From Longimicrobiales bacterium (GTDB taxonomy: Bacteria > Gemmatimonadota > Gemmatimonadetes > Longimicrobiales > Gaopeijiaceae), in contig CBDBCF010000001.1 in the NCBI GenBank assembly GCA_965202985.1, forward strand, positions 1,792,001 through 1,856,000: 64,000 nt of DNA. Direction: 5' to 3'. Within the stretch, counting starts at the first letter, position 1. Each line of letters opens with the position of its first letter. Position numbers and translations under genes: made by a program. The notes beneath the pieces were generated by a model. That model was not told the DNA's origin and ran no database searches. It saw nothing but the letters and a program-made list of their open reading frames with translations. Positions 12,339 to 51,509 of this stretch are shown piece after piece.

Positions 12339-15300
12339 GTGCGTCACGGTTCGGTGCGGCTTGGACGCAACGACCGAGCGGCGGGACCAAACTGGGGGGG
12401 GGGGGCTTGCGGGCGACGTGAGTCGTCCCGTCTCGTCGCGAATCCAGCCGTGAGCCGGCGAGGACGGTTCTCCGCGATCGTGGCGCTTGCCGCGTCGGCG
12501 TCCGCCCTGGCAGGCCCCGTCGCTGCTCAGGCGCCTGCGGCGCCGACCGGGTTCTGGGCCCACCAAGCCACCACCTCGTCGATCGATCTGGGCTGGGACA
12601 ACCCGGGCAACGCGGCGATCACCAGGTACCAGTACCGCTACGCCTTTTACAGATCCAATCTCCCCAATCAATGGACGGACGTCGCAAACAGCGACAGCAG
12701 CACGACTTCGGCCACGGTCGGAGGCTTGAGCAGCCCCAGGCGGTACCAATTCGAAATCAGGGCCTGCGCCGGCGCCGCATGCGGCGGGGCGAGCAGGACG
12801 AGAGTCAGTACGGCCAACGTGCCGATCAGCGGCGTTTCGATCACGAGTTCGCCGACGGGCGACACGTACGCCGCTGGCGAGACGATTGTGGTAGCGGTCA
12901 CGTGGACCAACAGCGTCCGCTACGCTCGTGGAGCCCATCCGTACCTGGACATCACGATCGGCGGCGCCAGCCGACGGGCGTCATGGAACTACACCGTTCG
13001 TAATCAGCCCACTCATACGTTCCGCTACACCGCCCAAACGGCGGACGTGGACAGCGACGGGATCAGCATCGGTCCCAATGCGCTGAGCGACCTCGATCTC
13101 TTCTGGGCCTGGGGCGGCCACCCCACCATGACGATCGGCAAGCACCGCATCGTCGACGCCGCCGGGCACAAGGTCAACGGCGCGCTGGCCGCCCCGGCCG
13201 CCCCCGCCGGGCTGGCCGCGACGGCGGCGCCGGGCCAAGCGACGCTGACGTGGACCGACCCCGGGAACTCCACCATCGGCAGCTACGAGGTTCGCCACGC
13301 CCTGGACACGGCCAGCTACCCGTCGAGCTGGACGACGATCGCGGGCAGCGACGCCACCACCACCCGCCACGTGGTCCGTCCGCTGACGAACGACAGCAAG
13401 TACAAGTTCCAGCTCCGGGCCAGGAACGGCGCCGGGGCCGGCTCGACGAGCGAAGCCAAGGCGACGCCGACCACCCTTCCGCTGGTGTCGGCAGTGCGCT
13501 TCGTCGGCACGCCTCTTGCGGGCGACACCTACGGCGCCGGCGAGGTCGTCCAACTGGAGGTGCAGTTCAGCGCGCCCATCGCGTTGACCGGTGCGCCTCG
13601 GCTGGCGCTGGCGGTCGGCAGCGCCGTGCGCCACGCGGCCTACGAGAGCGTCGGGGCGAACAGCATCCGCTTTCGGTACGTCGTGCAGGCGGGGGATTCG
13701 GACTTGGACGGGATCGGCGTCGCCGCCAACGCGCTCGCGCTCAACGGCGGGACGATCAAGGAGGTCGGCGGAACGCGGAATGCCGGGCTCGGCCTGGGGG
13801 CCGCCGCCTTCTCGGCCAACGCGAGCCACAAGGTGAACGGCGCTTCGGCGACCGCGCCGAGCGTGAGCGGCGTGCGCATCACCAGCGCTCCTTCGTTGAG
13901 TGCCCAAGTGTACGGGGGCGGCGAGCTGATCGAGGTGGAGGTCGAGTTCGCCGCCGCGGTTCCGATCCGGGTCGTCGGAAGTCCCCGGCTGCAGATCGCT
14001 TTCGGCGGGGGGCCCGCGTTCGCGACGTTGCGCAGAACGTCCGGCCGGTCGCTGCACTTCGGGTACGTGGTGACCAGCGGCGATCTCGACCCCGACGGGA
14101 TCAGCATCAGGACGACCGCCCTGCAGCTGAACGGCGGGACGATTCGGAGCACGGCCGGCGCCGCCGCGAACCTGGACCTGGGAAGCCACGCCATCTCCAA
14201 TGCGTCGGGCCACCGGGTGATCGGGACGACCACCACCACGCCCACCGTGAGTTCGGTGGCGGTCGTCGGCGCGCCGGCGAGCGGAGACACCTACGGCGCC
14301 GGCGAGGCGGTTCGCGTGGAAGTCGGGTTCACGGTGCCGGTGACGGTCACCGGGAGCCCCACCGTCTCCTTGAGGGTTGGTTCGCTGGCCAAGACGGCCG
14401 CATATCAGAGCGGGAGCGGCGGCAAGAAGCTGACCTTCCGCTACGTCGTGCGGTCGGCGGACAGGGACGCGGACGGCGTCTCAGTGTTCGCCATGGCGCT
14501 CAACTCCGGCACGATCCGGAGCGCGGCCGGGGCGAACGCCACCTTGGCGCTGGGCGCGCACGCGGTCACCAACGCCTCGGGCCACAAGGTGAACGGCAGC
14601 ACGGCGACGGTTCCCGCGGTGCGCGCGGCGTCGATTGCGAGCGCGCCGGCCAGCGGGGACACCTACGGCGCGGGCGACACGATCTCGGTGCAGATCGGCT
14701 TCACCACGCCGGTGAGCGTGACGGGCACGCCCCGCGTGGCGCTGGGAATTGGCGAGAGGACCCAGTACGCCGAGTACGCCAGCGGAAGCGGGACCAGCAC
14801 GCTGACGTTCAGCTACGTTGCGCGGGCGACGGACCGGGATCGCGACGGGATCAGCGTCGGGTCCGGCGCGCTGACGCTCAACGGCGGGTCGATCGTCAGC
14901 GAGTCGGCCCAGAACGCCACGCTCGCCCTGGGCACGCACGCGCTCAGGGCCGCCTCGGGCCACAAGGTGGACGGGAGCAGGACGATGCCTGCGGTGACCA
15001 ACGTACTCGTCACGAGCAGGCCGGACAGCGGGGACACCTACGCGGCGGCCGAGACGATCTCGGTGCAGGTGTCGTTCGGGTTCGCCGTGACGGTCACGGG
15101 CACGCCCCGGCTGGCCCTGACGATCGGGAGCGCTACCCGCCACGCGGCCTACGCGAGCGGGAACGGAACGAGCGCGTTGACGTTCAGCTACGAGACCTCG
15201 GCGACGGACTTGGACGCGGACGGGATCAGCGTGGGCGCGAACGCGCTGGCGCTGAACGGCGGAAGCATCCGGAGCGGGACGGGCGCCGCCGCGACGCTGG

Positions 15301-51509: not shown

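Follow-up and report, generated by a model that had tools for sequence, protein, structure and literature searches.

A predicted 13,000-residue surface fibre with an extended type V anchor in a Longimicrobiales bacterium

A stretch of 64,000 nucleotides from a Longimicrobiales bacterium (contig CBDBCF010000001.1, positions 1,792,001 to 1,856,000; the window) contains one gene for a giant protein of 13,056 amino acids (aa). The protein is best explained as a cell-attached surface fibre that is exported by a type V route and is part of a switchable repertoire. This reading, which draws on sequence comparisons and structural models, is given a probability of roughly 0.75. The protein would represent a new form of type V secretion, characterized by an extended C-terminal anchor, an immunoglobulin (Ig)-like repeat without a family name and a probably phase-variable repertoire. 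Adhesion, secretion, display at the surface and the length of the fibre in nanometres are predictions. Coordinates (Table 1) are window positions unless prefixed with G000, the genome under study, or G001; G001 to G003 are other genomes of the same genus.

The C-terminal anchor

The last 661 aa of the giant protein were modelled with AlphaFold2 using an alignment of 63 sequences. The model, with a mean predicted local distance difference test score (pLDDT) of 69 and a predicted template modelling score (pTM) of 0.59, starts with a helix (residues 14-48) and a low-confidence insert (47-229); twelve strands modelled with confidence (236-476) and six further strands (486-660, pLDDT about 58-93) follow. 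The helix, already predicted in an earlier note made from the letters of the window alone, was modelled over 35 residues with a pLDDT >90 over most of them. The Gly/Ala-rich insert contains a Cys pair common to the paralogues and short conserved segments.

In fold searches, model residues 8-480 were matched to the type Va autotransporter Hbp (3aeh) with a Z score of 28.4 and a root mean square deviation (rmsd) of 2.4 over 264 aligned residues, followed by NalP (1uyo, Z 27.7), AIDA-I (4mee, 27.5) and EstA (3kvn, 26.1), whereas the best non-autotransporter reached 18.2. The model fitted BrkA (3qq2) with an rmsd of 1.9 over 228 residues, and ranks 1-16 of the Foldseek search were all autotransporters. 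Because the match to these comparators is well above that to other barrels, the model indicates that the helix and strands 1-12 would work like a type Va domain. With type Va proteins the giant protein shares the signal peptide, the N-terminal passenger, the pore helix and the β-domain fold (Z 24.6-28.4); it differs in six extra strands, an insert of ~180 aa between the helix and strand 1, ~100 β-sandwich modules and a score below the cut-off of the profile PF03797.

Strand 12 is followed by 185 residues with six strands. Among the 397 homologues that have strand 12, strands 13, 14, 15, 16, 17 and 18 were present in 396, 390, 385, 384, 368 and 376, respectively. The extension strands alternate hydrophobic and polar faces, as strands 8-12 do, and ~90% of the homologues have an aromatic last residue, which is absent from strand 12. 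According to the available part of PMC6555100, the classical anchor is 12-stranded and C-terminal, and its passenger is usually a β-helix. As six conserved strands follow strand 12, the anchor is not a classical type Va anchor. The earlier note had described a β-barrel-like C-terminus and a self-anchored Ig/cadherin-stalk autotransporter. The C-terminus is indeed modelled as an autotransporter-type barrel with a related helix, but it has 18 strands and extends past strand 12, so that the classical definition does not apply. In an hhalign comparison, strands 14-17 were weakly alignable to strands 8-11 (E 8e-4, probability 24%), while no alignment to strands 1-6 was obtained; this suggests that the extension arose by half-barrel duplication.

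Based on the topology and on the terminal signal, which has moved to strand 18, the balance tips slightly towards a C-terminus that forms one 18-stranded barrel. The AlphaFold model counts against this: its barrel is closed after strand 12, with the extension left outside, and larger barrels are fitted at rmsd >12. In a covariation analysis (391-395 sequences, effective number 145-192), most hairpins were recovered and hairpins 14-15 to 17-18 were clear; pairs 12-13 and 13-14 were not, and neither closure was seen, the strand pairs 1-12 and 1-18 both being at background level. Against the type V reading as a whole counts the score of the window barrel on PF03797, 21.8 bits with a cut-off of 26. 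The AlphaFold closure with its close BrkA fit, the covariation of the extension hairpins and the resemblance of strands 14-17 to 8-11 are also what would be expected if a closed 12-stranded barrel carried strands 13-18 as a separate half-barrel. This half-barrel would pair with other copies, so that fibres would be bundled as dimers or trimers, possibly of mixed paralogues. Such an arrangement has an appreciable but smaller chance of being correct: an amphipathic six-strand sheet joined to strand 12 by a short turn would be simpler as part of one larger barrel, the terminal aromatic residue has moved to strand 18, and AlphaFold may prefer the familiar 12-stranded form. A parallel covariation signal between strands 11 and 13 (4.5 at first, 1.9 and 3.2 on re-analysis) was dropped.

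Sequence searches with the window C-terminus gave no matches over the cut-off in Pfam and NCBIfam and no result in the Atlas, where the homologue P0138 led to clusters named as autotransporters by their features. In PDB sequence searches, alignments A1 and A3 gave no match and A2 matched via cadherin-type N-terminal columns only. The anchor profile itself found 7,474 sequence clusters at E 0.001 and 3,731 at 1e-30, and among the matches listed the best-matching stretch ended at most about 125 aa from the C-terminus in 148 of 150. In two homologues, P0055 and P0102, the barrel lies away from the C-terminus, in P0055 before a TonB-dependent receptor; these are possible fusions or gene-calling errors. 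The homologues have diverse passengers of adhesion type (cadherin, FN3, Calx-beta, PKD, He_PIG, LRR). The PF03797 cut-off was passed by 15 of 56 homologues scanned with Pfam (the five top families being given for each protein), with matches that mostly cover profile positions 1-100, and by two paralogues of this genome.

The closest genomic relatives of the anchor belong to Gemmatimonadota or Longimicrobiales in 18 of 25 loci, the others including Thermodesulfobacteriota, Gammaproteobacteria, Chloroflexi and Spirochaetia. When 61 genomes were searched with an alignment of the C-terminal domain, 7 gave a match, namely this one, all three others of the genus and 3 of the 33 remaining genomes of the family; none of 24 genomes from two other families did, many of the genomes searched being fragmented.

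The passenger

The modules are arranged as signal peptide; FN3-R*-FN3; 7 repeats; FN3-R*-FN3; 22 repeats; FN3-R*-FN3; 56 repeats; 5 cadherins; Ig; helix; barrel, where R* is a divergent repeat flanked by FN3 on both sides. Pfam was scanned over aa 1-6000 and 11001-13056, and aa 6001-11000 were tiled with a profile derived from the repeats of the giant gene itself. The fn3 profile matched four stretches in aa 1-2000 and two in aa 4001-6000. The repeat profile gave 89 matches, corresponding to 88 repeats since an insertion splits the last one, and these tile aa 156-11802 except for five FN3-sized gaps. When scanned singly, all five cadherin modules matched (20.9-40.5 bits), two of them over the cut-off. 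Thus all module counts of the earlier note (6 FN3, ~88 repeats, 5 cadherin, 1 Ig-like, ~100 in total) were recovered, as was its single 39-kb open reading frame (ORF), which translates without internal stops into ~1.28 MDa and has a third-codon-position GC of 0.92.

The 88 repeats have a mean identity of 54% with no identical pair, and show an A/B alternation with a higher order of period 8. A D-x-D-x-D/N-G motif, which may bind calcium, is present in 81 of them. Single 126-aa repeats gave no sequence match in Pfam, NCBIfam or PDB, in line with the earlier note, which could not assign them to a named family. A repeat dimer was modelled as all-β with a pLDDT of 95, and ~90 of its residues fit Ig-like sandwiches in a fold search (best Z 8.5, no clear relative). 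On this model, the repeat is an Ig-like sandwich outside the named families. Its homologues are widespread and mostly without a family name (710 matches among 8,000 scored candidates), and the repeat was present in 88 of 363 fetched barrel proteins. Neighbours in the Atlas mostly lack a family name as well, some carrying Big_5 or Big_12 on 11-24% of members; Big_5, Big_12 and SWM_repeat were rejected as identity of the repeat, single repeats having no profile match.

Apart from the split last unit, the three FN3-flanked repeats are the most divergent. They contain 11 of the 15 Trp residues of all repeats, and their aromatic content is 9.6-15.5% compared with 5.9%. They are candidate binding modules. 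The first repeats also diverge from one paralogue to another. Instead of being a ligand-binding adhesin, the fibre could act as a shield or spacer that protects the cell from phage, from neighbours or from being phagocytosed by sponge cells. The conservation of 85 of the 88 repeats is spacer-like, no lectin or catalytic domain was recognised in the Pfam-scanned parts, and a large switching repertoire fits evasion as well as adhesion. Yet a richness in Trp and other aromatics is expected of binding surfaces, and the divergence of the first repeats among paralogues likewise speaks for ligand binding; a pure spacer or shield is considered unlikely.

The in-frame start candidates are GTG 12339, 12354, 12450 and 12480. 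The earlier note started the gene at GTG 12339; GTG 12450, giving 13,019 aa, is the likelier start because a typical 26-residue signal peptide results. By hydropathy and motif reading, this probable Sec signal peptide, as claimed before, has a basic n-region, the joint most hydrophobic 15-mer of the whole protein and a small-residue c-region before Gln. This Gln (window 12528) starts nearly all predicted mature paralogues. A Gln at the mature N-terminus recalls the pyroglutamate rule of Bacteroidota.

Length of the gene

The giant gene is confirmed as real and its size as not stemming from an assembly loop, since no repeats are identical and members of 10,700-13,600 aa occur in three other genomes of the genus. 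Exact repeats within the gene reach at most 285 bp. G001-G003 contain open frames with lengths of 13,587, 13,110, 12,966, 12,557, 11,976 and 10,722 aa, those of 12,557, 11,976 and 10,722 aa being in G002 and G003. The 13,587-aa orthologue of G001 is 92% identical to the N-terminal part of the giant gene and 92-95% identical over the mature protein. Its leader and the front of its signal peptide are unrelated to those in the window, as after leader swapping between genes. The 12,966-aa frame of G001 (G001:C1:2771495-2811000) has its barrel in a separate 433-aa frame, owing to a frameshift in the linker insert that is either real or a sequencing error; it is a mosaic of the N-terminus of one G000 paralogue and an FN3 cassette resembling that of the window gene.

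The 5′ stretch of the window was found in sequencing runs labelled sponge metagenome (two studies) and marine metagenome, none of the listed runs being an RNA run. Contigs of 4 of the 18 listed runs were aligned to 11500-31400, which takes in the initial 19 kb of the gene. The colinear pieces obtained measure up to 3,741 nt, the long ones coming from two sponge runs of one study, and the listed indels, the G run described below aside, occur as compensating pairs.

A repeat expansion or a chimera with a paralogue would make the length of 13,000 aa an assembly artefact. In this direction point the contigs, none of which spans 11500-31400, a paralogue that is broken at contig ends, and a block shared with the 11,123-aa paralogue G000:C1:2592516-2611421. 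Within this block the identity is 99.3-100% over ~7.5 kb (about 32.2-39.7 kb), with exact matches of up to 2,378 bp. Against an artefact stand the shortness of the internal exact repeats, the long frames of the related genomes and the compensating indels; moreover, swapped halves would still give two proteins of >11,000 aa. An artefactual length is therefore very improbable. The near-identity points to a recent exchange between both genes, with a local assembly swap as the alternative. The broken paralogue lies at both contig starts (G000:C1:1-7085 and C2:1-12654), with overlapping repeat patterns and frameshifts on C1, so the assembly breaks within this family member.

Paralogues and homopolymer runs

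The genome contains 16 genes with this anchor, which encode 2,040-13,056 aa, account for 6.3% of its DNA and share sequence blocks. Of 27 G/C runs of at least 12 nt in the genome, 12 lie at the starts of these paralogues (0.07 expected), eleven being C16-C28 and that of the giant gene G12, which the earlier note had missed. If GTG 12339 or 12354 is the start, the G12 run is in frame inside the coding region; with GTG 12450 it lies 44 nt upstream. Run length differs between strains: a contig of X1, which may be the source sample, has G12 and one X5 contig G10, while the X3 contigs break at the run. A C15-C31 run occurs at 13 of 18 chosen 5′ ends of the other genomes (15 from G001, 2 from G002, 1 from G003), a choice in which long members are over-represented. 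Between the G001 orthologue and the window gene, shared sequence begins only where the signal peptide ends; the unrelated leader of this orthologue again has a run (C21), as does the G003 orthologue (C19). In 19 of 25 genes, which are related to one another, an ATG precedes the run by at most 45 nt, compared with a background of 0.30-0.38.

Taken from the sequences, the G/C runs probably represent phase variation of the paralogue repertoire. In the available part of PMC5472700, Neisseria meningitidis NalP and AusI/MspA are described as phase-variable autotransporters with poly-C tracts. The giant gene resembles these loci in having a homopolymer run of strain-dependent length in an autotransporter gene. 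It differs from them in belonging to a 16-gene family of an uncultured environmental bacterium, in which the runs measure 12-31 nt, lie close to or ahead of the signal peptide and have a putative effect on expression. The upstream ATG of the 19 genes fits a frameshift switch like that of meningococcal NalP.

Some observations weaken this reading. The G10 allele was found in one contig of one sequencing run only. In the window gene, as in its two closest orthologues, the 45 nt before the run contain no ATG, and therefore the run may act there on transcription or initiation. Runs are missing in 4 of the 16 paralogues, in 5 of the 18 5′ ends chosen from the other genomes and in each of 13 smaller members (starts inside the 25-locus set, after two wrong-frame picks, two fragments and eight off-locus frames were left out). 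The many members without runs, an upstream ATG that is in frame in 7 of 19 genes, as by chance, and a second in-frame Met after the run in most run-bearing genes could mean that the runs are neutral or structural features of the leader, or assembly noise. Neutral runs would hardly be concentrated at these gene starts, though, where 12 of the only 27 genomic runs sit. They recur in the unrelated leader of G001 and in G003, the window run was also seen in short-read contigs, and other runs occur in TonB-dependent-receptor-like and methyltransferase-like genes (translation reading). Neutral or structural runs, or assembly noise, are thus improbable.

Among the other runs, G22 (G000:C2:698599-698620) lies within the coding region of a SusC-like TonB-dependent receptor, near its N-terminal end, and looks like a frameshift switch. 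Three related genes read from their translation as SGNH-hydrolase-like (G000:C1:236913, 844542 and 945326) have a G/C run of 21-24 nt before one conserved motif. G11 at G000:C1:364426 and C16 at C1:1139610 lie in frames that resemble, in translation, a DNA methyltransferase/restriction gene and a SAM-dependent methyltransferase, respectively, so that phase-variable methylation is possible.

Proposed mechanism and comparison with known systems

In the proposed mechanism, Sec would carry the giant chain into the periplasm, and BamA, perhaps with TamA/TamB, would insert the C-terminal domain by reading the aromatic end of strand 18. Genes for BamA-like and TamA-like (Omp85-family) proteins and for TamB are present in the genome. 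The inserted domain would most likely be one enlarged barrel with the helix in its lumen, through which the passenger would thread C-terminus first and fold bead by bead. Calcium would bind at the cadherin linkers and probably at the Asp motif of the repeats. β-sandwich modules are 4-5 nm long, and with about 100 modules the 85 conserved repeats would form a spacer of roughly 0.4-0.5 micrometre, on which the three FN3/aromatic-rich cassettes would reach out to ligands such as sponge matrix, glycans or other cells. Slippage at the G/C runs would change which paralogues are made, and exchange between paralogues would reshuffle stalks and tips.

The earlier note was right about the extreme size, but the protein does not stand alone: the genome has 16 paralogues, the family comprises 7,474 clusters, and an autotransporter of ~10,000 aa had already been published. 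In the available part of the survey by Celik et al. 2012 (PMC3419190), BigE is the largest known autotransporter with 10,429 aa. Insofar as that part describes BigE, both are giant repeat-expanded passengers on a C-terminal barrel, BigE having an EstA-type barrel and BrkA-like passenger repeats and the giant protein, ~25% longer, having Ig-like, FN3 and cadherin modules. The giant protein is longer than BigE, although larger ones may have been recorded since.

Stalks of Ig domains characterise type Ve proteins and adhesins of type I secretion systems (T1SS), and not type Va proteins. Type Ve proteins (intimin, invasin, InvD, InvE, FdeC) resemble the giant protein in exporting long Ig-like stalks through a barrel, with Ig domains folding successively, as set out in the available part of PMC6555100. 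The repeat also has weak fold matches to InvD, FdeC, InvE and invasin (Z 5.8-6.2). A type Ve inverse autotransporter was rejected, as its order is opposite; the giant protein has its barrel, one of type Va ancestry, at the C-terminus. T1SS/RTX giant adhesins such as MpIBP, which like the giant protein are megadalton chains of Ig-like beads that space tip domains, also include LapA and SiiE. Weak fold matches were obtained to the MpIBP extender domains 4p99, 4kdw and 5irb (Z 5.5-6.2). This class was rejected too, as the giant protein has a Sec signal and its own barrel. In line with the earlier note, which saw no RTX repeats, LPxTG motif or T1SS genes in the window, RTX nonapeptides and LPxTG motifs both numbered 0 in the motif scan; in the 92% complete genome, the best score for the T1SS protein HlyD (TIGR01843) was 53 bits against a cut-off of 208.65, the ABC and TolC parts not being searched.

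Sponge symbionts are enriched in cadherin and FN3 genes and rich in eukaryote-like domains, and few lineages encode secretion systems, according to the available part of Robbins et al. 2021 (PMC8163846). The anchor family is a candidate export route for cadherin, FN3 and eukaryote-like domains of sponge symbionts. As it often scores below the Pfam cut-off, annotation could miss this route. The available parts of PMC10947273 and bioRxiv 2023.11.21.568195 do not describe the family. In the literature covered by titles and abstract openings, with most subscription papers outside this scope, nothing was found on the family, on an 18-stranded autotransporter or on homopolymer phase variation in sponge symbionts.

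If exported as predicted, a single chain of ~13,000 residues would pass a type V pore, beyond the largest autotransporter of the 2012 survey, with Ig-type instead of β-helical folding. An enlarged barrel, if true, would directly test barrel closure by the BAM machinery and the relation between pore size and cargo. Together with the exchange of blocks, the homopolymer runs suggest that this environmental symbiont has a switchable surface repertoire. A wider proposal, which is held tentatively and falls somewhat short of even odds, is that of a distinct type V subtype, with a barrel enlarged to 18 strands by duplication of the C-terminal half and exporting megadalton Ig/cadherin/FN3 chains. In this genus it would have become a phase-variable, recombining fibre repertoire of up to 13,600 aa, bringing pathogen-style antigenic variation to an uncultured sponge symbiont along with a route to display eukaryote-like domains.

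Features and surroundings of the gene

Table 1. Features of the giant gene and its 5′ surroundings in the window
Feature	Position	Strand	Basis or remark
Terminator-like hairpin after upstream SusD-like gene	12125..12139	+	2 overlapping sites vs 0.5 expected
Giant ORF	12339..51509	+	13,056 codons from GTG 12339, 13,019 from GTG 12450
G12 run, candidate slipped-strand switch	12394..12405	+	In genome and X1 contig; two letters fewer in X5 contig
Probable Sec signal peptide	12450..12527	+	aa 38-63; hydropathy and motif reading
Tip cassette 1: FN3, divergent aromatic-rich repeat 1, FN3	12528..13463	+	Pfam and repeat profile
88 tandem ~126-aa Ig-like β-sandwich repeats	12804..47744	+	Repeat profile, dimer model, fold search
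Cassette 2: FN3, divergent repeat 9, FN3	16098..17111	+	Pfam and repeat profile
Cassette 3: FN3, divergent repeat 32, FN3	25440..26381	+	Pfam and repeat profile
18.9-kb block shared with paralogue	30898..49800	+	95.8% identical to 11,123-aa paralogue G000:C1:2592516-2611421
Five cadherin domains, D/N-x-N-E linker motifs	47745..49280	+	Pfam
Big_9-type Ig domain	49281..49553	+	Pfam
Pore (α-linker) helix	49563..49667	+	aa 12409-12443; AlphaFold, fold search
~180-aa Gly/Ala-rich low-confidence insert, helix to strand 1	49668..50210	+	AlphaFold, alignment
Strands 1-12, autotransporter-type β-domain	50229..50951	+	AlphaFold, fold search
Strands 13-18, conserved amphipathic extension with terminal aromatic	50979..51503	+	AlphaFold, alignment

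No sigma-70 promoter matches were found upstream of the giant gene. The terminator-like hairpin suggests that the gene is transcribed alone, separately from the upstream SusD-like gene. Long ORFs on the opposite strand and in shifted frames within the gene were taken as shadows of the high GC content. The gene is flanked by SusC/SusD-like pairs. A small membrane protein gene (51514-51906, - strand) is convergent with it, with 4 nt between its end and the giant stop, and a pentamer-like short tandem repeat with the unit ctagg lies at 52776-52815, upstream of the SusC-like gene at 52888.

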